Assembly (NCBI GenBank): GCA_001627865.1
Contig: LUQO01000013.1
Location: 44,714-108,713 of the forward strand
DNA length: 64,000 nt
Source: SAR324 cluster bacterium REDSEA-S27_B3
GTDB taxonomy: Bacteria; SAR324; NAC60-12
Direction: 5' to 3'
Within the stretch, counting starts at the first letter, position 1. Each line of letters opens with the position of its first letter. Below, in pieces: positions 29,957 through 47,060 of this stretch. The notes under the pieces are model-generated. The model was not told the DNA's origin. It saw nothing but the letters and a program-made list of their open reading frames with translations, and made no database searches. The translations under genes and the position numbers were made by a program.

Positions 29957-30700
29957 ATGAAAGTTGCAGTTCTACTGAAACAGGTGCCTGACCTGGCTGA
30001 GGAACTTGAGGTCGATGAAAGTGGCAAGGCTTTGGATACGGAATACATCAAATTTCGGCTGAACGAGTATGACGAGCATGCTCTTGAAGAGGCAGTATGT
30101 CTCAAGGAGGCCGGTCAGGCTACGGAGATTGTTGCTTTTGCGCTTGATGGTGAAGAGGTGGACAAAGCGCTGTTTTCCGCCATGGCAAAAGGTGCAGACA
30201 AAGCGGTCAAGCTTACCGGACCAGAAGTTGAAGGGAGCAGACAGGCAGCAGCTCTTTTTGCAGAAACCTTGGGTATGGATTATGACCTGATCATGACCGG
30301 AGTGCAGTCGGTGGACGATCGTGATGGTATGATGGGGCCCATGCTTTCCTCGATGCTCAAGGTTCCATGCGTCAGTGTTGTCACCCGAGTCGAGGGCAAG
30401 GAATCCAGCGTGACTGTCCATAAGGAATATTTCGGAGGTTTGATGGCTGCCTTTGATGTACAACTTCCGGCAGTACTCGGGATCCAGGCTGCAAGACAAA
30501 CTCCGCGTTATGCACCTGTGAGCAAGGTTCGTCAGATTCAGCAATCTGCCATCATTGAGGAAAAATCTGCCAGCGGGGTTTCGGGCTCGGCCACAAGCAA
30601 GGTGACTACCATGGCACCACCGACCAAAACCGGAGGGGCAAAGATACTAGGTTCAGTTGATGAGCTGATGGAATTACTGAAGAAAAAAGGGGTCGCATGA
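29957..30700 (+). CDS. etfB: Electron transfer flavoprotein beta subunit
   Basis: MKVAVLLKQVPD N-terminus typical of EtfB. Start set at internal ATG 29957 with AAGG RBS. Confidence 0.8.
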   Translation: MKVAVLLKQVPDLAEELEVDESGKALDTEYIKFRLNEYDEHALEEAVCLKEAGQATEIVAFALDGEEVDKALFSAMAKGADKAVKLTGPEVEGSRQAAALFAETLGMDYDLIMTGVQSVDDRDGMMGPMLSSMLKVPCVSVVTRVEGKESSVTVHKEYFGGLMAAFDVQLPAVLGIQAARQTPRYAPVSKVRQIQQSAIIEEKSASGVSGSATSKVTTMAPPTKTGGAKILGSVDELMELLKKKGVA

Positions 30701-30734
30701 AAAAAATCAAATTCATACACAAAAAGGGTTAAAC

Positions 30735-31670: not shown

Positions 31671-31714
31671 TACAAAATCATGTGAATTTCCTGAATCCTT
31701 GACTCAAAGGAAGC

Positions 31715-33742
31715 ATGCTCAGTTCAACTGAACAAATTGCCTTCGTTCTTCTGGTGCTGGTCTGTGGGGGGGTGGCGTTCCAGGGTTTTAGGAGAATCTT
31801 TGTTATTGTTTCTCAGGGAAAGCCTTCTTACCGGACCGATGAGTTTCTATCGAGGCTGATCAAGGCCCTCATCGAGGTTGGTCTGCAGAAACCGCTCTTC
31901 AAGTCCCGACCGATTGTCAGTCTTTTCCACGCCTTCATCTTTTTTGGATTCAGTTTCTACTTGCTGGTCAATTTCAATGACCTGCTGGAGGCCTACGTCT
32001 CGGGGTGGACTACCATCGATAGCTCCCATCCTGTGGCGTTGGGATTTAATCTTTTTTCCGATCTGTTCAGTATCCTGGTTTTGATAGGAATAATTTATTT
32101 CCTCATTCGTCGTTTCATAGGCAAGCCCAGGGTTTTTGAATTCAATAGAAACGTCAAACTACAGACTAAAGTAGTGGGAGGAGGGATTCGTAGGGATTCT
32201 CTGATCGTTGGGATCTTCATCATCCTCCATGTTGGATCACGTTGGTTGGGGACTGCTTTTCATTTGGCGGAGCGGGAAACTACAGAATGGTCTTTACCCA
32301 CGGCAAGCTTGGTGGCACCGTTATTTTTTGGCTGGAGCGGTTTGGAAACAGGAATCCATGTCACCTGGTGGCTTGCAATGGGCTTGATTGTCTTTTTCCT
32401 TCCTTATTTTCCAAGAAGCAAACACATTCACATTTTCCTGGCTCCTCTGAATCTTGCTTTTACCAATCGTGAGGCCAAAGGCAAACTTCTTGACCCAGTG
32501 GATGGGTCCAATCCTGGTGCGGCAACCCTGGATGAACTTCCCTGGAAACAAGTCTTTGATTCCTATGCCTGCATCATGTGCACACGCTGCCATGAGGTCT
32601 GCCCTGCGCATCAGTCTGGGACGCCATTGAGTCCTTCCGCACTGGAAATCAATAAACGTTATTTTATCAACCAGCATGTTTCCGGATTGGCAAAAGGAAG
32701 TACCAAACTGGATTTGCTGAAGGATGCAATTTCAGAAGACGCGGTCTGGTCCTGCACCACCTGTATGGCCTGTGTGGAAGTCTGTCCGGTTGGCAATGAA
32801 CCGATGCAGGACATTCTCCAGATCCGCCGGAAACTGGTATTCGATGCACGGATGCCGGATGAACTTTCGGACGCCCTTCGCAGCCTTGATGAACAGGGTA
32901 ATTCTTTTGGAGAGTCCTCACGAAAACGTACACGCTGGACCAGGGAACTGAACTTCGAGATAAAAGATGCTTCCAAGGAATCGGTGGAATACCTCTGGTT
33001 TGTTGGCGATTTTGCATCCTTCAACCAGAATTGTGTGGAAAATACAAGAAGGGTGGCAGAGGTTCTCAATGAGGCTGGTGTTGATTTCGGAATCCTCATG
33101 AAAGAAGAGAAATCGGCTGGAAACGATGCCCGTAGGGTTGGAGAGGAAGGTCTGTTTGATGCGCTCGCGGAAGAGAACATCAAGACCCTCGAGAATTGTG
33201 ATTTCCAGCATATCCTGACTACTGATCCTCATACCTATAATACTCTGTTAAACGAGTATCCTTCAAAGGGTGGAGTTTATTCGGTGAAGCATTATTCAAC
33301 GCTGCTGCTGGAACTGATTCTATCGGGGAGGATCAAAATCATCAAACCTCTCAAAATCAAAGGCACCTATCATGACCCCTGTTACCTTGGACGATACAAT
33401 GGAATATTCGATGCCCCGCGTGAAGTGATGCAGCATTGTGGAGTTGAACTCCTTGAGATGCCCCGAAACCGAATCAATTCCTTCTGTTGTGGTGCAGGCG
33501 GAGGACAGGTCTGGTTAAAGGAACATGAGGAAATGAAGCAACGTCCCAGTGAAAATCGGATTGAGGAGGCCCTTCTACTCAATGTCGAATATTTCACTGT
33601 AGCATGTCCCAAAGATATGACTATGTATTCTGATGCCGTCAAGACCTCTGGTAACGAAGAGAAGATGGTAGTACGTGATTTGATTGACTATGTCTTTGAA
33701 GCAATGGATCTGCCGGAAGACTCAAGAAAATCAATCGAGTAA
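31715..33742 (+). CDS. Membrane-anchored HdrD/DsrK-like FeS oxidoreductase (Etf:quinone oxidoreductase EMO-like; N-terminal HdrE/NarI-like TM domain)
   Basis: 5-6 N-terminal TM helices with conserved His, then 2x[4Fe-4S] (CIMCTRCHEVCP, CTTCMACVEVCP) and CCG domains (CYLGRYNG, CCGAGGGQVWL). Confidence 0.7.
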   Translation: MLSSTEQIAFVLLVLVCGGVAFQGFRRIFVIVSQGKPSYRTDEFLSRLIKALIEVGLQKPLFKSRPIVSLFHAFIFFGFSFYLLVNFNDLLEAYVSGWTTIDSSHPVALGFNLFSDLFSILVLIGIIYFLIRRFIGKPRVFEFNRNVKLQTKVVGGGIRRDSLIVGIFIILHVGSRWLGTAFHLAERETTEWSLPTASLVAPLFFGWSGLETGIHVTWWLAMGLIVFFLPYFPRSKHIHIFLAPLNLAFTNREAKGKLLDPVDGSNPGAATLDELPWKQVFDSYACIMCTRCHEVCPAHQSGTPLSPSALEINKRYFINQHVSGLAKGSTKLDLLKDAISEDAVWSCTTCMACVEVCPVGNEPMQDILQIRRKLVFDARMPDELSDALRSLDEQGNSFGESSRKRTRWTRELNFEIKDASKESVEYLWFVGDFASFNQNCVENTRRVAEVLNEAGVDFGILMKEEKSAGNDARRVGEEGLFDALAEENIKTLENCDFQHILTTDPHTYNTLLNEYPSKGGVYSVKHYSTLLLELILSGRIKIIKPLKIKGTYHDPCYLGRYNGIFDAPREVMQHCGVELLEMPRNRINSFCCGAGGGQVWLKEHEEMKQRPSENRIEEALLLNVEYFTVACPKDMTMYSDAVKTSGNEEKMVVRDLIDYVFEAMDLPEDSRKSIE

Positions 33743-33880: not shown

Positions 33881-35086
33881 ATGTTATTAGATACAACTGC
33901 AGAGGAGCCTTACAGCATAAAAGCGGCTTTCTGCAACGGCTATGAAAGGCTGTTCGATCGGCAATGGCCTATCTGGATTGGAGGGTTACTACTGGGAATG
34001 GGGAATGTGCTCCTGTTTGCCTTTGATAGACCCTGGACCGTCTCAAACGGTGTGAGAAACTGGGGTGACTGGTTTTTCAACCAAATCGGTGTAATTCAGA
34101 TGAATGTCCTTCCTCCAACTCTTTTTACCAGTTCAGTACTGTGTTTCGGAATGATCATCGGATCACTGGTGGCAGCATTGCTTGGCAGGCAGTTCCGGGT
34201 TCGTATGGCGCCAGCCAGGGAATTGTTCAAGGGGCTGCTCGGCGGAGTACTGATGGGAATCGGGGCTTCCCTCGCTTTCGGCTGCAATATAGGAGGTTTT
34301 TTTAGTGCAATCAGCGCACTGTCAATGGCAGGCGTGGTCATGATGGTCGGATTGATGGTAGGAGCATTTGTCGGGTTGAAACTGCTCATCTGGGAGATAG
34401 AGTATCTCCCAGCAACTTCCTGGGGGGTGCGACAAGTACCGAACAGGGATGACATGTCGGGTGTACCGAGTAGAGCCCAGCCAATTTCAGGGTTATTGGT
34501 TTTGCTGCTGTGTATCATTGTGATCTTCACTTACGATTCCTTTGATTATTCCGTAAGCGGCGGATTTATGCTCTTTGGACTGCTTGTAGGCATCGTCATG
34601 CAGCGTACACGCTTCTGCTTTGTAAGGGCTTTCAGAGACCCTTTCATGACGGGTGATGCGGAAGCTACTAAAGCAGTTGCACTTGCGGTCATCATCAGCG
34701 TAACCGGGTTCACAATCCTGAAATGGACGGATTTGAGGTCCTGGGATGTTTCTGTATTACCAGGTTTTTGGATTGGCAGTCTGATGGGTGGTATCATCTT
34801 CGGGATTGGAATGTCCCTTAGTGGTGGTTGTGCATCGGGTACTATCTGGCGGGCTGGAGAGGGACAGGTTAAACTCTGGGTCACACTTGTCACGTTTGCA
34901 CTGAGTACGTCCTACTTCAGGGACTGGCTAGTTGCTAGTGGATTGAGGGCTAAACTTGGAACTGAGCTTTTTTTGCCTGATGTTATTGGTTGGAAGATGG
35001 CACTAATCATCATTATTGCCATAATGTTATTTTGGTACTTGATGGCAGTTTGGAATGAAGTCAGCAAAAAATTGGTGGTGGTATAA
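33881..35086 (+). CDS. YeeE/YedE-family membrane protein (putative thiosulfate/sulfur-compound transporter)
   Basis: Two-repeat polytopic protein with conserved GCNIGG and GGCASG cysteine motifs typical of YeeE/YedE (TsuA-like). Confidence 0.7.
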   Translation: MLLDTTAEEPYSIKAAFCNGYERLFDRQWPIWIGGLLLGMGNVLLFAFDRPWTVSNGVRNWGDWFFNQIGVIQMNVLPPTLFTSSVLCFGMIIGSLVAALLGRQFRVRMAPARELFKGLLGGVLMGIGASLAFGCNIGGFFSAISALSMAGVVMMVGLMVGAFVGLKLLIWEIEYLPATSWGVRQVPNRDDMSGVPSRAQPISGLLVLLLCIIVIFTYDSFDYSVSGGFMLFGLLVGIVMQRTRFCFVRAFRDPFMTGDAEATKAVALAVIISVTGFTILKWTDLRSWDVSVLPGFWIGSLMGGIIFGIGMSLSGGCASGTIWRAGEGQVKLWVTLVTFALSTSYFRDWLVASGLRAKLGTELFLPDVIGWKMALIIIIAIMLFWYLMAVWNEVSKKLVVV

Positions 35087-35320
35087 AATTTTGGAATGAG
35101 GCTAGGAGACAAAACAATTTCCCAAGAAGGGCTCAACCGAATTGGGTAAAGGAAGGAGTCGAAAGCGAACCGTTAATTAAAACACAAAAGGAGGTAGTCA
35201 TGAAAAAATAGATTATTTATTGTATGTTATATAATTGGCGGAATTGTCCGCTGAGTCTCCTCCCTGGTTTTGAAGTGGGAAGAGTAAGAATCATTAATTG
35301 ACATTTATAAGGAGAAAGTT

Positions 35321-36625
35321 ATGAAAAATAATTCAATTCTATTGGTAGCATTTGCGTTCTTAGCTGGAATAATTTCAGGATGTGTAACTACTGGCGGAGC
35401 AAAATTTGGAGCACCATCAAAAGGCATGAGTCCTGCGGAATATGAGTCTTTGGTTAGGCTGGACCCACAGAATACAATGAAGGCAAATTTTTCTGTAGTT
35501 AAAGGAATGGATGGATATTTCCTTATTGATAACCAAGGTGAAAGTACTATTTCGGTTGTAGACTATAATAAAGGGGAGACAATCAAAAAAATTAAGTTAA
35601 GTGACCCTCCTGGCACCTCTTTTAAACCCGCAGGGAATCATCACATTTTTGTAATTCCTGGCGGAAGATATGCTTGGTCTTCGCAGCGATATGAAAAAGA
35701 TGTAATGTGGACTATAGATTTAACAACCCATGAGGTAGTTGATACTTTCAGATTAAGTATGGGAGGTAAAACAATAAAAGCACCCTTGCATATTGGATTT
35801 GCATACAAATCCCCTTTGGCGGTAACAGGTAATATCTTAGATAAAAAAAATGGATATCTTACTTTTTTGAGAACCGACACTCGCCGTCCTTCCCACATAG
35901 TTGATCTGAGTTGTTCAGGAGCTAGGGACGCAATGTTCACATTCGATGACTCAAAAGTTTTTACTACTTGCCAGCAGGAACCAAAGGGGGCTTCGATTGT
36001 TGACGTAAGTGGAAGAAAAGAAATCAAATTTATTCCTATAAAGGGAGGGAGAGCTGGAGGAATGACTCCCGACGGGAAATATTTTCTAGTTGGAGCCTCA
36101 AAGGCAGTTGTCCTAATTGATACTGCTACAAATGAAATTCACAAAACCATCAAAGTTCCTGGTGGTGGAGGTAATTTCACTTGTCTTCCAGATGGATCAA
36201 AGTGCTATGCAGGTTTAAGGAAAGACAATTCAGTCGGAGTAATTGATATGGCGAGTCTTGAACTGATTAAAGTCATAAAAACCGGTAAAAACGGTAACCG
36301 ACTCTACTTAAATCCTGCAAATCCCAGATACGGAATTTTTACTAATGAATCTGGTAAATCGGAAACTGTATCTGTAATTGATACCCAGAATGATGTTAAG
36401 ATCATTGATATAGAGACAGGTCTGAAACCTCATAATGTTGCTTTTAATCCAGAAGGAACACGAGCAATTATTTCAACTCCAAAGGAAGAAGTAGCAACTC
36501 TTGTTGATACATCATCATCAGATCCTACTAAGTGGGAAATAATTACCACAGACATTGATTCGGGTATAGAAAATAACGGCGTGCGCTGGGTACCTAGTCC
36601 AAGTGCTATAATAGCTGCAATGTAA
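35321..36625 (+). CDS. Lipoprotein with YVTN-type beta-propeller repeats
   Basis: Lipobox LAGIISGC. Repeated ~40-aa units with D/N-x-S-V-I-D motifs. Low GC relative to upstream operon. Confidence 0.5.
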   Translation: MKNNSILLVAFAFLAGIISGCVTTGGAKFGAPSKGMSPAEYESLVRLDPQNTMKANFSVVKGMDGYFLIDNQGESTISVVDYNKGETIKKIKLSDPPGTSFKPAGNHHIFVIPGGRYAWSSQRYEKDVMWTIDLTTHEVVDTFRLSMGGKTIKAPLHIGFAYKSPLAVTGNILDKKNGYLTFLRTDTRRPSHIVDLSCSGARDAMFTFDDSKVFTTCQQEPKGASIVDVSGRKEIKFIPIKGGRAGGMTPDGKYFLVGASKAVVLIDTATNEIHKTIKVPGGGGNFTCLPDGSKCYAGLRKDNSVGVIDMASLELIKVIKTGKNGNRLYLNPANPRYGIFTNESGKSETVSVIDTQNDVKIIDIETGLKPHNVAFNPEGTRAIISTPKEEVATLVDTSSSDPTKWEIITTDIDSGIENNGVRWVPSPSAIIAAM

Positions 36626-36819
36626 GGATTTGAATCTAAAGATGATCAAATAATGCAAATTGCTGCATCAGAGTAGAATAATATAGCTGGTGGTCGAAAT
36701 TTTATAAATAGATTTTTCGGCCACCAATTTTAATGTGTCTTTCTGCTCTAGATAAATTATTTGTTTATTAGCAAATAAAATATTTGCTCTAATTTTAATT
36801 CACAGTCTAGGAGAATTGA

Positions 36820-37287
36820 ATGAAAAATATAGAAAATTTTTCAAGAAGGAAATTTCTTAACTATACGATGGTTGGAGGGCTGACAATTCCTCTCCTATCA
36901 GTAATTCCTTCATCAAATGACGCACATGGCGCAGTTTTTCAAACCCCAAAAGATTTAGAAAATTTGACGGAATTAGAAAGAATCCATTTGCCTAAAATAT
37001 CATTGCCACCAGTTGTTGAAGATGGTGCTAGTGCATCAATAGTTTGTAGTGTTGACCATCCAATGGATGAAGACCACTACATAAAAAGTATTCAAATTAT
37101 GAATTTTGCAGATCCTATTGTTATAAAAGGAAAATTTTTCCTTACCCCTGTTAACGGAGAAGCATATTTAAGTACTCAAATTCGTCTATCTGGAGGTGAA
37201 GGAACAGTTTGGGTAATAGCAGAGTGCAACAAGCACGGTAAATGGGCAGCAAGTAAAAAAGTGACTGTAGCAGCTGGAGGGTGTTAA
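36820..37287 (+). CDS. soxY: SoxY-like sulfur-carrier protein
   Basis: Tat signal SRRKFLNYTMVGG, SoxY-like core, C-terminal swinging-arm Cys (KKVTVAAGGC-stop; canonical GGCGG truncated to GGC). Confidence 0.65.
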   Translation: MKNIENFSRRKFLNYTMVGGLTIPLLSVIPSSNDAHGAVFQTPKDLENLTELERIHLPKISLPPVVEDGASASIVCSVDHPMDEDHYIKSIQIMNFADPIVIKGKFFLTPVNGEAYLSTQIRLSGGEGTVWVIAECNKHGKWAASKKVTVAAGGC

Positions 37288-37288
37288 A

Positions 37289-38905
37289 GTGTGGGACAGC
37301 TCTGATTGGGCAAAAACTTTTTTATTCAAAGTTTATTTTGCAAGTGTTTTTTTATTATTATTGCTAACTAATGCAGCTAACTTATTAGCTTCTGCAACTG
37401 AACAAATCAGGATAATCACTACAAACGATATACACGCCTATTTAAAGCCAATATATTATCGCTACCTTGATGACATAAAACCCTGGGGTAAAGTATCTCG
37501 TGAAGGGGACTACGTCAATAAGGCCAAAATAGAAGGAAAAATCGGTGGGATGGCACATGTTGCATCCATGATCAAAAAATTAAAAGCAGAGAAACCAGGT
37601 AAAAATCTCCTGTTTGATGCTGGTGATACCTTGCATGGTGGAGGGATTACTTTTTTTGACAAGGGCGTTGCAATGGTTAAGATAATGAACGCTATCGGAT
37701 ATGATGCAATGGTTCCAGGGAATTGGGAATTCTTCTATAAAAATGATCATTTCCTTGATCTTATTGACAAGGCTAACTTTCCGGTAATTGCCTACAATCT
37801 TACTGACAAAGAATGGGAAGAACCAGCGCTTGATCAGTATATTATCCGTAAAGTAGGACAACTAAAAGTTGCTATAGTTGGCTATACTTATCCTTGGACA
37901 GCCCTAACATCAGCAATTACTGGGGCTGCTAAATGGTACAAGTTTGGTATCAAAGAAGATGAAGCTCGGGATTTATTAGCGGGAATAAGAAAAAAGGAAG
38001 ATCCGGACCTGGTAGTTTTCATTTCTCATGGAGGGTTCGGTCTTGATCAAAAATTTGCTAAAAGAGTGGATGGAATTGATGTCATGCTAAGTGGACACAC
38101 ACACGATGAAGTACTGGACCCTGTAGTATGGAATGATACACTGGTCTTTCAGGGTGGTGCCCATGGGAAATATGTAGTGAGTTTGGATTTGGAAATAAAA
38201 GACAAAAAAATTATTGATTTTGAGTATCGGCTTAATAAGGTTATGCAGAATAGGATTGATCCAGATCCTGAGGTTTCAAAATTAATAGAGGATGCATACC
38301 TGCCATATGAGGCAGAATTATCAAAAATCATAGGCAAGTCAGAAGTTTTAATGCATCGACGAGACTTTTGGCAGAGTACAGTCGGTAACTTGATCACAGA
38401 TGCAATGAGGGAAATCCAGAAAACAGACGTTGCTTTTTTTCCTGCTTGGCGTTTTGGAGCCTCGGTATTACCGGGAAAGATAACCAAGGAGGATTTATAT
38501 AATGTTATTCCGACAGAAGGCCATATTTTTACCTTTTCAATGAGGGGAAAAGAGATAAAAAATCTCCTTGAAAACATTTTAAGTTCAGTAGTAAACAAAG
38601 ATCCATATATCAGGGTGGGTGGTGATATGATTCGATTTTCTGGAATGAAAATTCTATGTGATCTTGCAAAGCCTGCCGGCAAAAGAGTTTTAAGAATAAA
38701 TATAGGAGGAGAAGAATTTTCCGAGGAAAAAGTTTTCAGTGTTGCTTCTGCTCATACAAGATTTCAGAATAACCCTCTATTTGGTGCAACTCATGTAAAG
38801 GATACCGGCAAAATGATTGTAGAAGAATTAATCAACTACATCGAGAGAAAATCTATCATAAAATCAACCTTGGATGACAGAATCAAAGTATTAGCTTTTG
38901 AGTAA
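37289..38905 (+). CDS. soxB: SoxB-like dinuclear-metal 5'-nucleotidase-family sulfate thiohydrolase
   Basis: Signal peptide. Motifs NDIHAY, DAGDTLHGG, GNWEF; C-terminal 5'-NT substrate-binding domain. Located between soxY and soxZ. GTG start overlapping soxY stop. Confidence 0.6.
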   Translation: MWDSSDWAKTFLFKVYFASVFLLLLLTNAANLLASATEQIRIITTNDIHAYLKPIYYRYLDDIKPWGKVSREGDYVNKAKIEGKIGGMAHVASMIKKLKAEKPGKNLLFDAGDTLHGGGITFFDKGVAMVKIMNAIGYDAMVPGNWEFFYKNDHFLDLIDKANFPVIAYNLTDKEWEEPALDQYIIRKVGQLKVAIVGYTYPWTALTSAITGAAKWYKFGIKEDEARDLLAGIRKKEDPDLVVFISHGGFGLDQKFAKRVDGIDVMLSGHTHDEVLDPVVWNDTLVFQGGAHGKYVVSLDLEIKDKKIIDFEYRLNKVMQNRIDPDPEVSKLIEDAYLPYEAELSKIIGKSEVLMHRRDFWQSTVGNLITDAMREIQKTDVAFFPAWRFGASVLPGKITKEDLYNVIPTEGHIFTFSMRGKEIKNLLENILSSVVNKDPYIRVGGDMIRFSGMKILCDLAKPAGKRVLRINIGGEEFSEEKVFSVASAHTRFQNNPLFGATHVKDTGKMIVEELINYIERKSIIKSTLDDRIKVLAFE

Positions 38906-38946
38906 ATGAATACCACTGGCTTAAACATTTTAAATCGAGAAGAAGA

Positions 38947-39300
38947 ATGGCAGAAAAGATAAAGCCCCCTCGCATAAGAGTTTCCAGACGTATCAAAAAA
39001 AATAAGGTTTTCAAGGTGAAGGTTAAGTTTGACCACCCTTCATTCACAGGACTGGCAATGGCTGACGATACAACAGAGCCCGTTTTTAACAGAGCAAAGC
39101 CTGTAACTTTCATTAGAAATATGCTTGTATACTATGGAGATGAACTTGTCAGTCGTTTAAGTTTATCTTCAGGTATTGCAGATGATCCACTATTTACATT
39201 TAAATTAAAAGCTACTAAGGAAGCACCAGTAAAGATTGTTTTCATAGATAATTTTGGTAAAAGATGGGAAGCTTCCAAAGAAATAAAATTTAAAGGCTAA
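38947..39300 (+). CDS. soxZ: SoxZ-like protein
   Basis: Aligns to SoxZ pattern (IKPPRIRVS / KPRVKVP; VKFDHPSFTG; IVFIDNFGKRWE). 117 aa. Confidence 0.7.
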   Translation: MAEKIKPPRIRVSRRIKKNKVFKVKVKFDHPSFTGLAMADDTTEPVFNRAKPVTFIRNMLVYYGDELVSRLSLSSGIADDPLFTFKLKATKEAPVKIVFIDNFGKRWEASKEIKFKG

Positions 39301-39347
39301 AAGCAATTCATTTAGCCATTTGCTAACCAATAAAAAAATAGTTTATC

Positions 39348-40055
39348 ATGAAGAAATTTTCACAGATTTTTGTGATTTCTTACTGTTTTTCTTTTTTCTT
39401 GTTCCAGACAATTTTTGCTGGAACAGTGGTAGATAAGTTTAAAATTGAGGGAATAATTTCTATTGCGAGTACAAAAGCATTACAGTCTGAGCTTCTAAAA
39501 AAGCTTGATATTAAAATTTTAGATTTAAACCTGAAAAAAACTGATTCTGGATGGCCTGTTCTAAGAATTGAATATGATCCGGATATTATTTCGAAAAACA
39601 AAATTGAAACTGTTATTGGTGAAATAGAAGACCCGGCTGGACACAAGTATAAAGTTCATAAAGGGCCACTGATTGCTAATGCAAATCTTATAGATGAAGA
39701 GAATCAAGCAATGACGATATTAGGTGATATGACTATGGATTTAAAACAAGTTAATAATCCGACAGTCGATTTTGATTCTTCTATCAAACGCGGAAAGGAC
39801 GTGTTTATAAAAAACTGTGCTAAGTGCCATGGGTTGAATGGGAATGGATATGGAGTAGTTGCCCACGGATTTGCAACTTGGCCAAGACAGTTATGGGCTT
39901 GGTATAAAGCAGATAGTGCGGCTGATAGCTACTTGTATTGGATAATTGAAAATGGCAAATCAGATATGCCTCCGTGGGGACTTGTTCTTTCGGAGGATGT
40001 AAGATGGGATTTAATAAATTATATTAAAACAATAAAAAAACCTGAAGAAAATTAA
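39348..40055 (+). CDS. Monoheme c-type cytochrome (SoxX/SoxA-like)
   Basis: Signal peptide, single CAKCH heme-binding motif, downstream Met/Pro-rich region (SDMPPWG). Confidence 0.55.
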   Translation: MKKFSQIFVISYCFSFFLFQTIFAGTVVDKFKIEGIISIASTKALQSELLKKLDIKILDLNLKKTDSGWPVLRIEYDPDIISKNKIETVIGEIEDPAGHKYKVHKGPLIANANLIDEENQAMTILGDMTMDLKQVNNPTVDFDSSIKRGKDVFIKNCAKCHGLNGNGYGVVAHGFATWPRQLWAWYKADSAADSYLYWIIENGKSDMPPWGLVLSEDVRWDLINYIKTIKKPEEN

Positions 40056-40109
40056 TAATTAATATCCATAAATTGTTAAAAGCTTTATGAAACCATAATA
40101 ATCTCCAAT

Positions 40110-40532
40110 ATGGACGTTTCAGAGGATATTGTAACAAGAAATTTTTCTGGAATGAACTTTGATGAGGTGCTTGAATACTTAATTCAAGAAGTTAAAGCCC
40201 GAAACTATCTTATTACTCGTATAAACAATATTGATAATATACATGACCGTCTTAATGGAGATGCTGAAAACAAGGTAAGATTCAAATTTTACAAAATTGT
40301 GGAATTTTGTAACTTGGAAAGTTGCAGCCAGCTGATTTCCACTGACCTCACAGCGGGTGTATTTATGCCTGTGAAATTTGCAGTCTATCAAGCAGATAAC
40401 AAAGAACAAGTTTTTGTCTCATTTTTAAAACCCACCGCTTTTGCCAGTATTTTCAATTCTGAAAGAATGATGAGAATTGCAGAAATATTAGAAAAAGACA
40501 TGTATGAAATTCTTGATGAAATTATTTTCTAG
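40110..40532 (+). CDS. DUF302-family protein
   Basis: ~140 aa with DUF302-like pattern; the family commonly accompanies sox genes. Confidence 0.5.
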   Translation: MDVSEDIVTRNFSGMNFDEVLEYLIQEVKARNYLITRINNIDNIHDRLNGDAENKVRFKFYKIVEFCNLESCSQLISTDLTAGVFMPVKFAVYQADNKEQVFVSFLKPTAFASIFNSERMMRIAEILEKDMYEILDEIIF

Positions 40533-41127
40533 ATGTGGATTATCTTTTTTAATAGCTTTTCCAATATTAGTTAATTCTCAAATTTTTCCCCCTCTTAACG
40601 CCCATCAAAAAGCTAACTCAGGAGCAAAAATAATCCCCGGGGGAGATTTTACACTAAGATCTGCCGATGGGCCTTTGTCTCTGAAGGATCTACGCGGAAA
40701 GGTGGTCATATTGTTTTTTGGGTACACCTCCTGTGCGGACGTTTGTCCGATATCACTGGCAACGATCGCCAATGTATTTTCAAAGTTGACACACGTTGAG
40801 CTAAAACGGATTCGATCACTTTTCATCAGTCTTGATCCTGAGCGGGATACTCCGGAAAGACTCAGGAAATTCACAGGCTATTTTCATCCAAATATTGTGG
40901 GAGTTACAGGAATCCCGGAGGTAGTGGCCGATGTTGCTCAAAAGTATGGTGTCGAAATGGAAAAGAATGAGTCAAACAATTCGTCCTTGGGCTACACGAT
41001 TTCGCATACAACAAATATTATTGTCGTCGGTACTGATGGAGAAATCAGCAAAACATTCCCGCACGATATTGATGGGAGACCTCTTTTGCATCAAATTAAA
41101 AGTCTTTTGAAGATCAAACAATCGTAA
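40504..41127 (+). CDS. SCO1/SenC-family copper chaperone / thiol-disulfide oxidoreductase
   Basis: CxxxCP motif FGYTSCADVCP, thioredoxin fold, N-terminal signal/anchor. Confidence 0.7.
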   Translation: MKFLMKLFSRCGLSFLIAFPILVNSQIFPPLNAHQKANSGAKIIPGGDFTLRSADGPLSLKDLRGKVVILFFGYTSCADVCPISLATIANVFSKLTHVELKRIRSLFISLDPERDTPERLRKFTGYFHPNIVGVTGIPEVVADVAQKYGVEMEKNESNNSSLGYTISHTTNIIVVGTDGEISKTFPHDIDGRPLLHQIKSLLKIKQS

Positions 41128-42762
41128 GTGTCCCTGATTCCAATCATGCATAGCTTTACCGCGTACCAGTGGTACTCGGCAACTCCTAAATGTCTGGTAT
41201 ATTTCTTAACGGCACTGATCATCCTGATACCTCATGCTACAGCGTTTGAGCATGAAGGGTCATCGGTAAATTTCCAGGAGTACAGCCGCGATGTAATCAG
41301 GAAAAACAGAGAGAAAAACAAGCCGTATTTTCTCCTTTTTGCCGCTCAGTGGTGTCACTGGTGTGACGTTTTCAATGAAGAAACGCTGAGCAGGAAAAAA
41401 GTGTATACCTACCTGCGAAATCATTTCACGAACATTTTCATAGACGCAGATATCCATAGCTCTGCCTACCGCAAATACAAGGCGACAGGTGTGCCTTTTA
41501 CTGTATTTTTAAATCCTGACGGTTCCCTCTATTACAAGTATGCTGGAACGCTTTATGCGGACGAATTCCTTGAGGTAATCCAGGATGTCCATAAAAATAT
41601 TTCCGAAAACAGATCTGTGGATGGGGAAGAAAATTCTCAAATAGAGTATGTCCCCCCTGCTAAACTTAAAAAAGCCGACCTGGTGAAATTACGTGAAATG
41701 TTCCACCAGGGAATTCTAGACAACTTTGACTTGAAAGAATATGGCCTTGGTACGGGTGAAAAATCCATACTTCATCAAACCTTTCTATACCTTTTACATT
41801 CTTTGAGAGGAACCGACAGGAAAGATGCCATTCGATGGATCACCAGGACTCTGGAAAAAGCAGTTGAGCATATTTACGATCCGGTCGAAGGGGGATTTTT
41901 CCGGTATGCTGAAAAAAAGGACTGGCAAATACCACACTATGAAAAAATGGCTGACCTGAATGCCGGCGCTGTTATGATTATGTATGAAATCAACAGGCAA
42001 AGTCCCTCTCCTGATTTGAAAAAAGCTGCAGATAAAACCGTGCAATATTTGACTTCGACATTGTTTGAACCGAATATAGGCTCTTTTTTGAGTTTCCAGG
42101 AAGCAGATACTTCATACTATTTTCTGAGTGGTGATCACCGCAAGCATGAGCATCGGCCCAATGTTGTAGAAAAGGTTTTTACCGACCGACTTGCAAAAAC
42201 TCTTGTTTATCTGATAGATGTGCTCGACTACACCACACGGAATTCACTGGAGGAGAAGGTAACCCAGTCTCTTGATTTTATGGCAGAAATGATTCTCAAT
42301 AATGATCAGCTATACCATTACTATTCTATTTCAGAAAGGCAGTGGCTTCGCAGCGGCAGTCTGCCCGACTACGCCTATTCTGCGACACTGTTTCTCAAAG
42401 CAGCAACAAAATTTCAAAGCAATCATTACCATGAGGTTGCCATGAAGATTCTACGGCTGTCAAAGGCAAGGTTCCACGACGCAGAAAAACGGATCTTTTT
42501 CGATCCATCTATGGACAGTTTAGATGATGTAGAGTATCTCATGGAGATGAACGGGCTGTTTGCCCAAATGATGTTAGACATGGAAATGATCCAGTGGACA
42601 AACGATGATCATCGAAACCAAACAGAACCGATGATAACCTATTTTTCTGCAATGGAAGAGTTGCTTGAAGACCAAATTTGGGATGCTGAAAACTGGAAGT
42701 TTGCTGAGCGTTATGTACCTTACTTGAAAGCTGTTGACAAATTCCTTGCTTCCAGGGAGTAA
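41128..42762 (+). CDS. Thioredoxin-domain protein (DUF255/YyaL-like) with (alpha/alpha)6-barrel-like C-terminal region
   Basis: N-terminal TM, thioredoxin motif AAQWCHWCDVF, long C-terminal domain. Confidence 0.55.
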   Translation: MSLIPIMHSFTAYQWYSATPKCLVYFLTALIILIPHATAFEHEGSSVNFQEYSRDVIRKNREKNKPYFLLFAAQWCHWCDVFNEETLSRKKVYTYLRNHFTNIFIDADIHSSAYRKYKATGVPFTVFLNPDGSLYYKYAGTLYADEFLEVIQDVHKNISENRSVDGEENSQIEYVPPAKLKKADLVKLREMFHQGILDNFDLKEYGLGTGEKSILHQTFLYLLHSLRGTDRKDAIRWITRTLEKAVEHIYDPVEGGFFRYAEKKDWQIPHYEKMADLNAGAVMIMYEINRQSPSPDLKKAADKTVQYLTSTLFEPNIGSFLSFQEADTSYYFLSGDHRKHEHRPNVVEKVFTDRLAKTLVYLIDVLDYTTRNSLEEKVTQSLDFMAEMILNNDQLYHYYSISERQWLRSGSLPDYAYSATLFLKAATKFQSNHYHEVAMKILRLSKARFHDAEKRIFFDPSMDSLDDVEYLMEMNGLFAQMMLDMEMIQWTNDDHRNQTEPMITYFSAMEELLEDQIWDAENWKFAERYVPYLKAVDKFLASRE

Positions 42763-43135
42763 ACATGTATTGCATTTTCGACGTGAATATCTAAAGACCT
42801 GCGATTATTTTGATAATTCTATTCAGTATTTATTAATGCTGAACCTGATTTAACCTCAGATTTTTTTCTTGCAAAAAAAGTGTATAGTGATATATTCGAT
42901 ATATCGGATTATTGTTTAATATAATAAACAAGTTTAAATTTTTACTCAAAATTCACTGAATTTGAATGGTAACCACTAGTATGTTTGGGTTCTTATGCTA
43001 AACCAGAACGTCATAAGATCTACTGCTTCGTCCGGAATGACAAGCCTAAGTAAGTAATTTCAGTATCTTATGGTAACCCGTGAGCCAAATAATACACAGA
43101 ATAATTTAAAGATTAAGTCAGAAATAAGGAGAGTT

Positions 43136-43423
43136 ATGGGAGTATTGATTGAAATACCTTCTGCATTAAAACAATATGTAAACAACCAGGATGAGGTCGA
43201 AGTTGACGGCAGCTCAGTTGAAGAGGCATTAGATTCTTTATGCACACAATTCATTGAACTCAAACCAAACCTGTTTGATGAAAATGGCATAGTCAGAAAT
43301 TTCATCAATGTCTATCTCAATGATGATGACATTCGCTATGCTGATGGCATGAAGAGTACTGTTAAGGACGGAGACAGCATTCAGATTGTCCCTTCAGTAG
43401 CGGGAGGATCTGTATACAGCTAA
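43136..43423 (+). CDS. MoaD/ThiS/CysO-family ubiquitin-like sulfur-carrier protein with C-terminal extension after GlyGly
   Basis: RBS AAGGAGAG upstream of ATG 43136. Beta-grasp-like sequence ending ...IQIVPSVAGG-SVYS-stop. Four residues after GG imply proteolytic maturation. Confidence 0.6.
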   Translation: MGVLIEIPSALKQYVNNQDEVEVDGSSVEEALDSLCTQFIELKPNLFDENGIVRNFINVYLNDDDIRYADGMKSTVKDGDSIQIVPSVAGGSVYS

Positions 43424-43434
43424 AAAAGGGCAAA

Positions 43435-44170
43435 ATGACTTTAAATAATGAGGAAATCAACCGCTACAGCCGGCACCTGACTTTGCCTGAAGTCGGCATG
43501 GGGGGTCAGTTGAAGTTGAAAGAGGCCAAAGTACTGATGATTGGAGCCGGGGGTCTGGGATCGCCATTGGGAATGTATCTGGGTGCTGTGGGAATCGGGA
43601 AACTCGGGTTAGTTGATTTCGATGTAGTTGATCACACAAATTTGCACAGACAGATAGCGCATGCCGCGTCTGATGAGGGCCGGCCTAAAGTTCATTCTCT
43701 ATGCGACACAATTCTAGCGGGTAATTCCAATATTGAAGTTGAGGTGCATAATATTCGCCTTGAGCGTGAAAACGTTCTGGAACTGTTCGGGCAATATGAC
43801 ATCATTGCTGACGGATCCGATAATTTTGAGACTCGATACCTGATCAATGACGCGGCATATTTTACTAAAAAGCCGCTTGTATCTGCTTCAATTTTTCGCT
43901 TCCAGGGACAGATAACAATCTTTGATCCTGAGTCCGGAGGGCCATGTTACCGGTGTCTCTACTCAGAACCTCCTCCTGCCGCACTGGTTCCAAGTTGAGC
44001 AGTTGCGGGAGTCCTGGGCGTGCTCCCGGGAGTTGTTGGACTGATACAGGCCACAGAAGTAATTAAGCTGATTCTGGAGAATGGAGTTCCCCTTATGGGA
44101 CGCTTGCTCTTGTATGACGCCATGAAGATGAATTTCAAAGAGGTACGTGTCTGCAGTACAGGAAGAATTT
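43435..44170 (+). CDS. MoeB/ThiF/MoeZ-type E1-like adenylyltransferase with in-frame TGA (candidate selenocysteine) at the conserved Cys position
   Basis: Nucleotide-binding motif GAGGLGSP. CxxC (PCYRCL). ORF stops at TGA 43996-43998, but the same frame continues with AVAGVLGVLPGVVGLIQATEVIKL... which aligns to MoeB TCVEAGVMAPLIGVIGSLQAMEAIKML. The TGA occupies the Cys187(MoeB)/Cys184(ThiF) position. Confidence 0.55.
43996..44028 (+). promoter_or_regulatory. Candidate SECIS-like hairpin immediately downstream of the in-frame UGA
   Basis: 7-nt spacer after UGA, then 6-bp GC-rich stem CGGGAG (44006-44011) / CTCCCG (44023-44028) with 11-nt loop UCCUGGGCGUG carrying GG/GU ~18-22 nt after UGA. 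Confidence 0.35.
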
Positions 44171-44497
44171 GACGAGGACTCATTTGAGCTTTCCCCCCTG
44201 GAATTCAAAACTGCGCTTGAGCAGGACCTTGGAGCAGTGCTGATTGATGTTCGAGAACAATATGAATGGGACATCTGCTACATTGACGGCGCAAGGTTGT
44301 TGCCAACCAGCAGTTTTGATCCCTCAACCAGCGGACTGGATACGGAAACACCGATATATTTATATTGCTACAAAGGTCAGCGTTCAATGACAGCTTTGAA
44401 GGAACTCTGGAACGCCGGTTACAAAAATCTTAAAAACCTGAAGGGTGGCATTGATCTCTGGGCGGAAGAAGTTGATCCGGATATGCCGCAATATTAA
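44147..44497 (+). CDS. Rhodanese-domain sulfurtransferase (MoeZ-type C-terminal domain, here in +1 frame relative to the E1 gene)
   Basis: Rhodanese motifs LIDVREQYEWDICYIDGA and active-site Cys loop CYKGQRS. GTG start at 44147 overlaps the E1 3' end by 24 nt. Upstream residues in this frame match the MoeZ linker. Confidence 0.6.
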   Translation: MSAVQEEFDEDSFELSPLEFKTALEQDLGAVLIDVREQYEWDICYIDGARLLPTSSFDPSTSGLDTETPIYLYCYKGQRSMTALKELWNAGYKNLKNLKGGIDLWAEEVDPDMPQY

Positions 44498-44577
44498 TCC
44501 TGAAAAAGTCAACGTTCAGACAGCAAAATCTCAATGGCTATCAAAATAATGCTTCTGTTCCTCGTATAGGTTGAGGA

Positions 44578-44716
44578 CCATTGTCATCCCGGACTTGATC
44601 CGGGATCCAGATTCATGATAAAGCCTTCTCTGGACTTGATCCGGGTTTAACACCGTATTTGAAGCATTTCCACTGGATTCCGGGACTGCGCTTTGCTTCG
44701 CCCGGAATGACATCCG
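44578..44716. repeat. Repeat-rich intergenic region: hairpin TCCCGGA-cttga-TCCGGGA, direct 14-nt repeat GGACTTGATCCGGG (x2) and hairpin TTCCGGG-N16-CCCGGAATGACATC
   Basis: Seen directly in sequence between the rhodanese stop and the JAMM-PLP start. Shares GTCAT(T)CCCGG / CCCGGAATGAC arms with elements at 8.86 kb and 59.17 kb. Confidence 0.4.
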
Positions 44717-44804
44717 AGGCAGTTATTATGACCTTTTACTTCATTATCATCAATTAGTAATAGTTTTTTTGAATGTTATATTCATCGGGAAAAAACTGAG
44801 TTAA

Positions 44805-47060
44805 ATGGAGATCCCGGAAAATATATTAACAGAGTGTCATGAGTACGGAGTAGCAGCTTATCCGGAAGAGACCTGTGGCTTTATCATAGGAAATCGGGAA
44901 GTTCCGGATTCGCTTGAGACTGTATTGCCGATGCGCAATATCATGAATGATCTGCATGAGAAGGATCCGGCGCAGTATCCGCGTACCGCCCGTGACGGAT
45001 ATGTGATTGATCCGCTGGAGCAATTGAAACTTGAACGTTCCCTTAAAAAAGAAGGGAAGGAAATTAAAGTAATTTATCACAGTCATCCGGATGTTGGGGC
45101 TTATTTCTCAGCAAAAGACAAGGAAGACGCGCTGTGGAACGGGAAGGCGCGTTATCCCGGTGTAAGTTTTCTGGTCTGCGGAACAACCGATGGAAAACCT
45201 GATGGGGCTATTATTGCGGACTTTAATCAGGACAGCGGAGATTTTGATATAACTCCGGTTACTGTCAATTCATCTGCAGCGTCCGGGGGTCTTGTAGGTG
45301 GCACTTTTGGAATTACCGGAATCCTGCCCACCATTGATTTCATTCATGAGTGGAAAAATGGAAATCGTGAACTGCAGTACGGATATTTTCGTTTTGTTAA
45401 CCACCAGCACATCAAAGACCTGCATGCAGAGTTGTGTTCCCGTTCAGGAGCAAGGTACGCGCTCACTTACTGTTCCGGAAGCGCCGCTCTATTTGAACTG
45501 TTGATTTATCTGCGTGAATCCCTCCCAAATATAAATCTTTATTTTTCCTCCAATTCAGCTCTTTCTGCTGACGGAATCCAGAGCCTTGAAATTTCGTGTA
45601 AATCGCTTGATCTGAAAAATCTGATTGATCCGGAGTTGCTGTCCGCAAAGAACGGAGATGTTTTGCTGTTGGCGATGGAAGCTCCGGAATTATTTGTAAA
45701 AGAAAATTCAGAATGGCTGGCAAAATTAAAACGCCAGAGGGTGACAGTTATTTTTTACTCCTCAAATCTGCAGGCTTCTGATCAGTGGCCAGTCGGACTT
45801 ACTTTCTGGATATCTGCAATCAGCAGTCCGGAAACAGCTACAAAACATTCCGGAATTGAAGGCGGAGTAATCCTCAGCAACGCGGACCGGCAGATTGCTG
45901 AATTGACTGAGACACGCAAACGTAACGGTTCTGTTCTGTCCGCCCGCAATGCCGCGGTTTTGCTCAAAATGCTGAAGGAAGAAGATACAGATTTGCATGA
46001 CATTGCCAAACTTTCCGGAATTAACAAAACCTGGGAACTTTCAAATCCGGAGCAGAAGATTACAGAAAAGTTATGTGAATGGGAACATGCCACAGCCGGT
46101 TTTTTATTTCCTTCAGGCATGTCGGCAGTTCATTCCGTGATGAATCTTCTGCGTAAAAAAAGCAAAAACCAGGTTATCGTGATCGGTTTAATGTACAGCG
46201 ACAGCTACAACCTGCTGATGAGTCCGGGACGATCATCCAGATGGGAGGCTGAATTTGTCGGGCTGGATGAACTGGAGAAGTTAGATCAGATTATTTCTGA
46301 GAATACCGCAATGATTGTCACTGAAACAATAACAAATCCTCTTGTGGAGGTACCAGATTTAAACAGGATCGGAGATATTGCTTCGGCGCATGAAGTGCCG
46401 TTTGTTGTTGATAACACGATTGCCTCTCCGGTAAATTGCCAGCCAATAGACTACGGAGCGGATTATGTAATTCACAGCACCACCAAATATCTGAGCGGCA
46501 GCAATGATCACGCTGGTGGAGTTGTGCTGGCAAAAAATTCACGGAACGCTTCCGCAATCGAGAATTTCCGACGCTGCTGGGGACTGAGGTTATCTCCTTT
46601 AGAGTCAACAGTTCTCTGGGAATGCATGCAGGACTTTGCTGAACGGATGGCTCGGTTTAACTCAAACTGCACTGCCGTGGCTGATTTCCTGTCTGAGCAT
46701 GCAGCAGTTGATATGGTTTACCATCCATCTCAAAGTTCTCATTCTTCATATTTCACTGCAAAAAAACTGCTCAGCGGAAATGGAGGAGTGGTCAGTTTCA
46801 CTCTGAAGGACGAAAGTGAAAATGCTTTGAAGATATTCCATGACAAAGAATTTTCTTCAATAATCAAGGCACCGTCAATTGGTTCAAATCAAACCTTGAT
46901 TTGTCCGTACCCAATGCTGACACACTATTTTGACACTGATGAAGATCTCAGGGAAATCAAGCTGCCTCGTCACCTGATCCGTGTCTCTGTGGGCTGCGAA
47001 ACAGAAATTGAGGGGATATTAACTGATTTAGACTGCGCGCTGAAAAGGACTATTCAGTAA
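44805..47060 (+). CDS. Fusion protein: N-terminal JAMM/MPN+ metalloprotease (Mec+/HcyD/QbsD-like), central degenerate PLP-like region, C-terminal Cys/Met-metabolism PLP-dependent enzyme (MetY/CGS-like sulfhydrylase)
   Basis: JAMM motif HSHPDVGAYFSAKD with upstream EETCGFIIG. C-terminal domain with PLP-lysine motif HSTTKYLSGSNDHAGG and typical end LIRVSVGCE. Central ~250 aa faintly resemble a second aminotransferase-fold fragment. Confidence 0.7.
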   Translation: MEIPENILTECHEYGVAAYPEETCGFIIGNREVPDSLETVLPMRNIMNDLHEKDPAQYPRTARDGYVIDPLEQLKLERSLKKEGKEIKVIYHSHPDVGAYFSAKDKEDALWNGKARYPGVSFLVCGTTDGKPDGAIIADFNQDSGDFDITPVTVNSSAASGGLVGGTFGITGILPTIDFIHEWKNGNRELQYGYFRFVNHQHIKDLHAELCSRSGARYALTYCSGSAALFELLIYLRESLPNINLYFSSNSALSADGIQSLEISCKSLDLKNLIDPELLSAKNGDVLLLAMEAPELFVKENSEWLAKLKRQRVTVIFYSSNLQASDQWPVGLTFWISAISSPETATKHSGIEGGVILSNADRQIAELTETRKRNGSVLSARNAAVLLKMLKEEDTDLHDIAKLSGINKTWELSNPEQKITEKLCEWEHATAGFLFPSGMSAVHSVMNLLRKKSKNQVIVIGLMYSDSYNLLMSPGRSSRWEAEFVGLDELEKLDQIISENTAMIVTETITNPLVEVPDLNRIGDIASAHEVPFVVDNTIASPVNCQPIDYGADYVIHSTTKYLSGSNDHAGGVVLAKNSRNASAIENFRRCWGLRLSPLESTVLWECMQDFAERMARFNSNCTAVADFLSEHAAVDMVYHPSQSSHSSYFTAKKLLSGNGGVVSFTLKDESENALKIFHDKEFSSIIKAPSIGSNQTLICPYPMLTHYFDTDEDLREIKLPRHLIRVSVGCETEIEGILTDLDCALKRTIQ

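Follow-up and report, generated by a model that had tools for sequence, protein, structure and literature searches.

A conserved nine-gene cassette, probably for sulfur oxidation, with a predicted SoxY/superoxide reductase hybrid carrier and a low-GC central tract in a SAR324 bacterium

The 64,000-nucleotide stretch analyzed here (the window; SAR324 cluster bacterium REDSEA-S27_B3, contig LUQO01000013.1, positions 44,714 to 108,713) carries nine co-oriented genes on the + strand (33881-42762; Table 1), directly 3′ of a type II sHdr/ETF cluster. With somewhat better than even confidence, we read these genes as one copy of a conserved periplasm-to-cytoplasm sulfur-oxidation cassette that is related to Sox yet distinct from it, works through a proposed carrier-iron mechanism, and owes its low GC content to allele replacement of the central genes. 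The carrier is predicted to be a hybrid, uniting a SoxY fold and a Gly-Gly-Cys arm with a complete His4Cys ligand set of the superoxide reductase (SOR) type. A SoxY-type carrier that keeps all ligands of the SOR Fe centre appears to be new, the combination being described by no paper searched: nothing relevant linking SoxY with desulfoferrodoxin, neelaredoxin or superoxide reductase was found in these papers, and a study of SoxY diversity does not mention iron.

The carrier has a twin-arginine translocation (Tat) signal (SRRKFL) and ends in ...VTVAAGGC followed by the stop codon, the arm cysteine C155 (37282-37284) being the last residue. Scores are above the Pfam gathering thresholds for both SoxY (PF13501; 59.4 vs 28.4 bits) and Desulfoferrodoxin (PF01880; 40.6 vs 22.2 bits), and below the NCBIfam cut-offs for the SoxY equivalog (SoxY_true, TIGR04488; 48.3 vs 125 bits), the SoxY_para_1 ‘AACIE arm’ model (TIGR04487; 62.5 vs 172 bits) and neela_ferrous (27.9 vs 61.9 bits); AAC-arm representatives lack the metal ligands. 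The top PDB sequence matches are superoxide reductases (4bk8, 2amu), with SoxY (4uwq_B) ranking behind. In the alignments with 4bk8 and 2amu, H56 (36985-36987), H80 (37057-37059), H86 (37075-37077), C136 (37225-37227) and H139 (37234-37236) fall on the SOR ligand motifs H-x-P, HP(M)…H-x-I and C-N-x-H-G-x-W. All five ligands, the twin arginines and VAAGGC are invariant in 18 members of the carrier family sharing 57-82% identity. An earlier note on this DNA, made from the sequence by eye, had described the region as a truncated sox module; its gene list, its soxY-soxB-soxZ order and the GGC ending are all correct, as domain searches and the carrier C-terminus show, and its SoxY call holds as to type but had missed the complete SOR-type ligand set.

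The predicted carrier fold matches SOR and SoxY crystal structures equally well. An AlphaFold2 model built on a 100-sequence superfamily alignment (predicted local distance difference test score, pLDDT, 85, core >95; an 18-sequence alignment gave pLDDT 48 and was discarded) retrieved SOR structures with Foldseek at template modelling (TM) scores of 0.77-0.79, and Paracoccus pantotrophus SoxY (2oxg_Y) at TM 0.76, with a root-mean-square deviation of 1.3 Å over 98 columns. A carrier profile searched against 1.84 billion representatives gave 624 hits, 77 of them complete. The full ligand set is present in 31 of the 77, and 25 of these 31 also have the arm cysteine, either terminal or in a SoxZ fusion; six of the 77 have the ligands without the arm, and 36 are ordinary SoxY with at most two ligands. 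These proteins form a continuum: ligands with a terminal Cys arm, ligands with an internal arm fused to SoxZ, ligands without an arm, and ligand-free GGCGG SoxY together with AAC-arm paralogues. Genes for the arm-less, ligand-bearing form are followed by soxZ and then a rhodanese gene, and those for the fused ligand-bearing SoxY-SoxZ proteins adjoin genes for a metallophosphoesterase and a SoxA/TsdA-type cytochrome. At one such locus (L063, a metagenome contig, region 3307-4326; related loci are given L numbers), a SoxA/TsdA-type cytochrome gene and one for a 405-aa metallophosphoesterase lie upstream of the fused iron-site SoxY-SoxZ gene, which is followed by a gene for a polytopic membrane protein that by eye resembles subunit I of a haem-copper (cbb3-type) oxidase.

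The carrier might instead be a periplasmic, Tat-exported superoxide reductase that receives electrons from cytochrome c and guards periplasmic sulfur chemistry, making the cassette partly a stress-defence unit. Such a role would suit the complete ligand set, the passing of the Pfam Desulfoferrodox threshold, the SORs at the top of the PDB matches, the existence of a catalogued TAT-SOR class (PMC3116461) and the range of hosts, which includes oxic-ocean bacteria (SAR324) and metagenome-assembled genomes (MAGs) named as sponge symbionts. It appears very unlikely, since the catalytic EKH motif lacks its Glu and Lys, the neela_ferrous score falls under its cut-off, and the invariant Cys-ending SoxY arm, the obligate SoxZ partner and the SoxB-like hydrolase are left unexplained.

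When one genome per species was scanned, a close relative of the SoxY-like gene was found at 46 loci, all in MAGs, spanning SAR324, many Gammaproteobacteria (Arenicellales, Poriferihabitaceae, Thiotrichales), Binatia, Anaerolineales and ‘Thermofontivivens’. Gene content and gene order are shared by about 40 of these, in every case where the contig extends far enough, and the YeeE-like gene lies immediately 5′ of the beta-propeller gene in about 40. The SoxZ-like gene is kept in 41 loci and the thioredoxin (Trx)/DUF255 gene in 31, while DUF302 is missing from six loci that keep the other eight genes (L037, L038, L041, L043, L044 and L052; sponge-associated and marine gammaproteobacterial MAGs of Arenicellales/Poriferihabitaceae) and is therefore dispensable. 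Loci of the Chloroflexi type and L064 have a second, deeper-branching order, with the beta-propeller, Y, Z, cytochrome c, YeeE and B genes followed by SCO1 and Trx. Cassette GC content tracks that of the host (0.34-0.68). Comparison of flanking genes identified none outside the nine that is conserved across lineages, no SoxXA is present in the ~40 related cassettes, and a plasmid search with the beta-propeller gave a single match, a YncE protein of 29% identity, with no plasmid-borne cassette found.

This distribution does not fit the description of the module as truncated and of its order as non-canonical: in several phyla, ~40 loci keep Y-B-Z and the full set of nine genes, with host-matched GC. 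The scores of the SoxY-, SoxZ- and SoxB-like proteins below the NCBIfam equivalog cut-offs, taken with a gene set kept in ~40 loci, argue for what appears to be a distinct, conserved nine-gene system rather than a Sox remnant.

Three of the related loci show individual peculiarities. The closest species-representative locus (L012, PAVC01000039.1) has proteins 93-99% identical to those of the window and the same mosaic structure (see below); its label is Candidatus Neomarinimicrobiota, identical proteins carry Deltaproteobacteria or SAR324 labels in other records, and there may be a binning or taxonomy conflict. In L008 (SAR324 single-cell genome AG-404-P05, 5152-bp contig), the closest relative of the central block, there is no SCO1 match between DUF302 and Trx/DUF255, and SCO1 may have been lost or frameshifted. 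L064 (metagenome contig ERZ925372, region 5149-6298), a distant variant of the cassette, has a cupredoxin gene between the SoxB-like gene and SCO1, where the window has DUF302 5′ of SCO1; its position directly 5′ of SCO1 hints that the SCO1 client in that variant is a copper protein. The window cassette encodes no obvious cuproprotein.

The SoxB-like protein scores 413.5 bits with TIGR04486 against an equivalog cut-off of 550, the next 5′-nucleotidase model giving 146 bits, and matches Thermus thermophilus SoxB (2wdc) with 208 bits. It retains the dinuclear-metal motifs TNDxH, DxGD, GNWE, SHxG and GHTH, and has the SoxB-style Trp where nucleotidases have a catalytic His. The earlier note had made its SoxB assignment hinge on SoxB-specific insertions; similarity to SoxB runs through the entire protein (profile positions 103-554 of 556), and the assignment is not refuted. 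The GTG start lies 1 nt past the stop codon of the soxY-like gene, and the GGAGG 8 nt 5′ of it corresponds to the Gly-Gly codons of the carrier arm (37276-37291, GGAGGG), an arrangement that suggests translational coupling of the SoxB-like gene to the carrier gene. The SoxZ-like protein scores below the equivalog cut-off of NCBIfam SoxZ_true (TIGR04490; 52.4 vs 76 bits) and, having no signal peptide, is presumed to be co-exported with the SoxY-like Tat substrate. A second metallophosphoesterase/5′-nucleotidase family gene (13824-15548, 574 aa, 3′ of lipoate genes) was rejected as a true SoxB: the SoxB model gives it just 78 bits, and a cyclic-nucleotide phosphodiesterase/nucleotidase model 116 bits; this generic protein serves as an internal control.

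The same data bear on the possibility that the cassette is an ordinary truncated Sox system, in which divergent SoxY, SoxZ and SoxB work with SoxXA encoded elsewhere and the SOR-type residues are a relic without a role. The Pfam SoxY, SoxZ and 5′-nucleotidase domains are all present, the hydrolase resembles SoxB from end to end with metal motifs kept, JGI and some NCBI records call these proteins SoxY and SoxB, and the fused relatives adjoin a SoxA/TsdA-type cytochrome. We nevertheless regard this as unlikely: all three proteins fall under curated equivalog cut-offs, and five ligands that are invariant across phyla and persist down to ~34% identity do not form a relic-like pattern. In addition, the co-conserved beta-propeller, cytochrome c, SCO1 and Trx proteins have no place in canonical Sox, and surveys of SAR324 genomes have rarely found SoxXA. 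In the window itself SoxA, SoxX, SoxC and SoxD have no match among the open reading frames (ORFs) scanned, a set that leaves out those at ~50-56 kb, in line with the earlier observation that no soxCD or diheme SoxA is recognizable.

Among the remaining cassette proteins, the beta-propeller is a candidate catalytic partner. Across 42 orthologues, conservation of its motifs GNHH, SSQRYE, CQQEPKG, TCLxDxSKCY and NNGVRWVP reaches 95% or more, and a PDB sequence search returned only a YVTN surface-layer domain (1l0q, 81 bits) and hydrazine synthase beta, giving no clue to an enzyme activity. The cytochrome c, the presumed electron acceptor, has an extra N-terminal domain of ~110 aa, a conserved MPPWG and no match to the SoxX or SoxA models; it is encoded by the only real CxxCH gene in the window and has one such motif, consistent with the single monohaem cytochrome noticed earlier. 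An ORF with two CxxCH motifs (2272-2688) is spurious, with a low-complexity translation and no family match. Conserved cysteines are found in GCNIGG, RFCFV and GGCxxG of the YeeE-like transporter and in FCNLxSC of the DUF302 protein, an accessory component, and the CxxxCP motif and His ligand of SCO1 are conserved. Scanning 33.5-43.3 kb for promoters and terminators gave counts at or under the shuffled expectation.

The adjacent cluster encodes DsrE, LbpA, sHdrC1, B1, A, H, a B3-like protein, a Rieske protein, EtfB, EtfA and a 675-aa Fer4+CCG protein. Its domains at 23914-31670 follow the type II sHdr definition (shdrC1B1AH, fused B3, etfAB; PMC11582611), subunit names being given by order and domains only, and the cluster is presumed to be the cytoplasmic sink for imported sulfur. 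The sHdr/ETF-YeeE-cassette arrangement recurs in L012 and L023, and L045 has ETF- and Hdr-like genes nearby. In other hosts with annotated flanking genes the neighbours differ: in SAR324 loci L007, L009 and L013 the cassette adjoins DsrK/DsrO/DsrP-like genes and DsrE2, and in Arenicellales it adjoins DsrE/DsrH-like genes. In Hyphomicrobium the YeeE-like SoxT1A was shown experimentally to be needed for sulfur import to sHdr (PMC11582611). A YeeE-family gene within the cassette and varied cytoplasmic sulfur-oxidation genes beside it support hand-over of sulfur to the cytoplasm, and this context backs the proposal of the earlier note that sulfane sulfur feeds a cytoplasmic pathway. At 8920-13568 the window also encodes a second LbpA/GcvH-like protein, a lipoate-protein ligase, two radical-SAM enzymes and a second LplA-like protein; these genes resemble sHdr-associated lipoate assembly, and with their elevated GC content (0.51) and GC content at third codon positions (GC3; 0.49-0.54) they match the sHdr operon and stand apart from the remainder of the window.

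The AT-rich dip seen earlier by eye relative to the sHdr operon is real. The 5-kb segment with the lowest GC content in the 64 kb (35501-40500; GC 0.361, mean 0.437, sd 0.035) contrasts with the highest-GC segments at ~24-30 kb, in the adjacent sHdr operon (0.50). GC3 is 0.22-0.31 in six consecutive genes, from the beta-propeller to DUF302, where the mean over genes is 0.42 (sd 0.08); in a permutation test, 5e-6 of shuffles gave so low a run. The tract is somewhat low in GC1 and GC2 too. The other cassette genes are not AT-rich (GC3: YeeE 0.52, SCO1 0.375, Trx 0.45). Of the extent first proposed, 35100-42762, the dip itself stands, but the compositional block ends at DUF302, ~40.5 kb, and the functional unit already starts at 33881.

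Relatedness changes at the same places. Whichever cassette gene is compared, SAR324 loci L007, L009, L010 and L013 group in a single coherent clade, and the six central genes of the window nest within this low-GC clade beside L007/L009 (87, 86, 79, 83, 70 and 62% identity), with L007 the nearest neighbour in 500 of 500 bootstraps. For the beta-propeller, identity of the window to L007 (87%) exceeds that of L007 to L010 (73%), and GC3 of the central genes matches that of the L007/L009 cassettes (0.21-0.31). By gap-excluded pairwise identity matrices, the outer genes of the window lie outside this clade: YeeE is 56% identical to L007 and closest to a Binatia locus (L018, 76%), SCO1 has 49-53% identity to every SAR324 orthologue, and Trx ~50%. 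The tract is best read as replacement of six central genes of a resident cassette by the allele of a lower-GC SAR324 lineage, as one recombination event with breakpoints at ~35.2 kb and ~40.5 kb explains both the reversal in relatedness and the composition. A mosaic of this kind implies that parts of the cassette are exchanged between related lineages by within-operon recombination.

Two other origins of the dip were considered. The earlier note had suggested horizontal acquisition of a partial Sox system, taken here as recent entry of the whole low-GC module from a donor that was foreign and AT-rich. The strong local drop in GC and GC3 fits this suggestion, as does the presence of the cassette in several phyla, which implies horizontal movement at some time. 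However, the dip spans six of the nine cassette genes with both edges inside the conserved unit, the flanking cassette genes differ in ancestry, cassette and flank GC are equal in most hosts, and the tract has its close relatives among other SAR324 cassettes, not in a foreign phylum. Some horizontal exchange is supported by the nesting of the tract in the SAR324 clade, but the tract is not the footprint of module acquisition, and a foreign origin of the whole is highly improbable. Low GC without any transfer, reflecting codon and amino-acid usage peculiar to periplasmic and perhaps weakly expressed genes, is only slightly less improbable. Cassette GC is indeed 0.03-0.06 under that of the flanks in SAR324 loci L007 and L009-L013, and the lowered GC1 and GC2 of the tract point the same way. 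Against this, YeeE, SCO1 and Trx are not AT-rich here though they are in L007 and L009, gammaproteobacterial cassettes show no systematic dip, and the nearest-neighbour reversal between central and outer genes is left unexplained.

In the mechanism proposed for the cassette, a reduced sulfur compound, most likely thiosulfate, would be oxidatively attached to C155 of the SoxY-like/SoxZ-like carrier. The two electrons would pass to the iron centre of the carrier itself and/or to the beta-propeller, then to cytochrome c and the respiratory chain, replacing SoxXA. The SoxB-like enzyme would hydrolyse the terminal sulfonate to sulfate, and the YeeE-like protein would import the remaining sulfane sulfur for oxidation, which would fall to sHdr here and to rDsr in other hosts. 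The arm cysteine may be kept reduced, or metal delivered, by SCO1 and the Trx/DUF255 protein.

Several points weigh against this scheme and the associated history. The Glu-Lys-His motif of SORs (E-K-H-x-P) is not kept, the carrier family having E-[RKQ]-[IML]-H-x-P; the name of a PDB mutant, T24K (4brj), indicating Thr at that position in the Ignicoccus enzyme, implies that natural SORs without the Lys exist. Iron is assigned to the carrier from its ligands, and another metal could be bound. C136/H139 are followed by a 13-residue last strand and then the arm, so, going by the strand topology of the model, C155 should lie well away from its own subunit's metal site, and direct arm-metal chemistry would need an oligomer or a partner. 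The SoxA/TsdA-type cytochrome beside the fused relatives means that the iron site need not replace SoxA. Finally, we infer the direction of recombination from parsimony and composition.

Table 1 Features of the cassette and its surroundings in the window.
Feature	Position	Strand	Evidence
YeeE/TsuA-family membrane transporter, 401 aa	33881-35086	+	First cassette gene; Pfam Sulf_transp 200 bits
YVTN-type seven-bladed beta-propeller lipoprotein	35321-36625	+	Signal …ISGC; NCBIfam beta_rpt_yvtn 68 bits, Pfam YNCE 28 bits
Predicted SoxY/superoxide reductase hybrid carrier, 155 aa	36820-37287	+	Pfam SoxY 59.4 bits and Desulfoferrodox 40.6 bits, overlapping region
SoxB-like dinuclear-metal hydrolase, 538 aa	37289-38905	+	Sec-type signal peptide; TIGR04486 413.5 bits
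SoxZ-like partner subunit, 117 aa	38947-39300	+	Pfam SoxZ 57 bits; no signal peptide
Monohaem class-I cytochrome c, 235 aa	39348-40055	+	Pfam Cytochrome_CBB3 53 bits; one CAKCH
DUF302 protein, 140 aa	40110-40532	+	Pfam DUF302 39.5 bits; no signal peptide
SCO1/SenC-type periplasmic copper chaperone or thiol-disulfide oxidoreductase	40504-41127	+	Pfam SCO1-SenC 130 bits
Membrane-anchored thioredoxin-fold (WCxWC) DUF255/YyaL-like protein	41128-42762	+	Last cassette gene; Pfam Thioredox_DsbH 51 bits, Thioredoxin_2, Thioredoxin_7
Low-GC tract, best read as recombinant, beta-propeller to DUF302	35100-40530	.	GC3, permutation, relatedness reversal vs flanking cassette genes
Type II sHdr cluster (context)	23029-33742	+	Pfam domain series

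The window, which is 99.95% identical to a marine metagenome contig (L001) and whose proteins recur in MAGs with Deltaproteobacteria or SAR324 labels, contains further sulfur-related loci. Right after the cassette, a ThiF/MoeZ-like gene (43435-44592) has an in-frame TGA (43996-43998) at the position of the conserved Cys of the family (…LVPS-TGA-AVAGVLGVLPG…). This TGA is common to all related contigs, where gene callers split the gene (187 + 190 aa), and is followed by a hairpin (dG -21 kcal/mol, z -1.6); it is probably a selenocysteine codon. The window lacks 95 nt present in L001 at ~44151, with loss of a CxxC zinc motif and a frameshift into the rhodanese domain, due either to pseudogene formation or to an assembly artefact. 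The ThiF-rhodanese gene is flanked by genes for a ThiS/SAMP-like small protein (43070-43423) and a JAB-deubiquitinase/Cys-Met pyridoxal phosphate enzyme fusion (44805-47060), and the set (43070-47060) looks like one for sulfur-carrier-protein-dependent cysteine/homocysteine synthesis. A 470-aa FGE-sulfatase-domain protein (16635-18047, - strand) and a gene pair resembling sulfopyruvate/phosphonopyruvate decarboxylase alpha and beta (3473-4595, under model cut-offs) are further organosulfur-related features near the sulfur-oxidation region. MORN-repeat proteins are encoded at 57558-58718 (386 aa) and 60080-61486 (468 aa), where the window is AT-rich.

In the dark ocean, SAR324 ranks with the most abundant lineages of bacteria. 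Genome studies of this group report only SoxYZ and SoxB and call Sox incomplete (PMC8364033, PMC4782131). If the cassette is self-sufficient without SoxXA, metagenomic surveys that make soxXA a requirement would have mis-scored the marine capacity for thiosulfate/sulfane oxidation. Carrier-protein sulfur chemistry would gain a new principle in a SoxY carrier with a metal centre; such a centre would also offer a concrete hypothesis for the origin of SoxY and for why cofactor-less SoxY still uses the Tat pathway, and give the conserved beta-propeller, SCO1 and DUF255 proteins testable roles. A wider view, to which we lend only tentative credence, short of an even chance, places SoxY carriers and periplasmic SOR-like iron proteins in one evolutionary continuum and sees in the cassette a previously unrecognized SoxXA-independent pathway with a redox-active metalloprotein carrier and a new beta-propeller enzyme. 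This pathway would be the main route feeding reduced sulfur to sHdr/rDsr in oxic seawater, both for SAR324 and for several uncultured groups of Gammaproteobacteria, sponge symbionts among them.

Compared with the canonical Sox system (Kelly-Friedrich, SoxXA-SoxYZ-SoxB(-SoxCD)), the cassette shares a Tat-exported SoxY-fold carrier with a Gly-Gly-Cys arm, a SoxZ partner without a signal peptide, a SoxB-type dinuclear-metal hydrolase and a c-type cytochrome as likely electron outlet. It differs in a carrier ending in GGC-COOH (GGCGG in Sox) and bearing a His4Cys ligand set, in the order Y-B-Z, in the absence of SoxXA and SoxCD, and in the addition of beta-propeller, YeeE, DUF302, SCO1 and Trx/DUF255 proteins. 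In Erythrobacter flavus 21-3, TsdA and SoxB reportedly convert thiosulfate to zero-valent sulfur, with a SoxB-family hydrolase acting outside the canonical Sox complex; that pathway is said to include no carrier protein, beta-propeller or YeeE. A SoxYZ-like carrier, a beta-propeller and PedF are also a co-occurring trio in quinoprotein-dehydrogenase systems, and the cassette proteins give weak matches, far under cut-offs, to the corresponding models (TIGR04557, SoxYZ-like carrier, 37-49 bits; TIGR03866, beta-propeller, 56 bits; TIGR04494, cytochrome c-550 PedF, 35 bits). The cassette has a SoxB-like enzyme and YeeE, neither of which is known from those systems.

The truncated Sox, SoxT and sHdr-LbpA system of Hyphomicrobium denitrificans (PMC11582611) is similar in its carrier-bound periplasmic sulfur, import by a YeeE-family protein and cytoplasmic oxidation by sHdr. 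That system combines genuine SoxXA, SoxB and SoxYZ proteins with an sHdr of type I (PMC11582611); the cassette is found here with type II sHdr and in other hosts pairs with rDsr genes as well. SoxT is reported to be absent from type II sHdr genomes (PMC11582611); the YeeE-like gene here lies between the sHdr and carrier genes, and its product is 401 aa long, against 330-350 aa for SoxT. With 1Fe superoxide reductase/neelaredoxin, the carrier shares an immunoglobulin-like fold and five Fe ligands in the same motifs, and it falls within the SORGOdb definition of TAT-SOR (active-site II ligands plus a twin-arginine signal), a class whose description mentions no SoxY arm (PMC3116461). Unlike SOR, the carrier has that arm, an obligate SoxZ partner and a place in a sulfur-oxidation operon, and it lacks the Glu-Lys before the first His.

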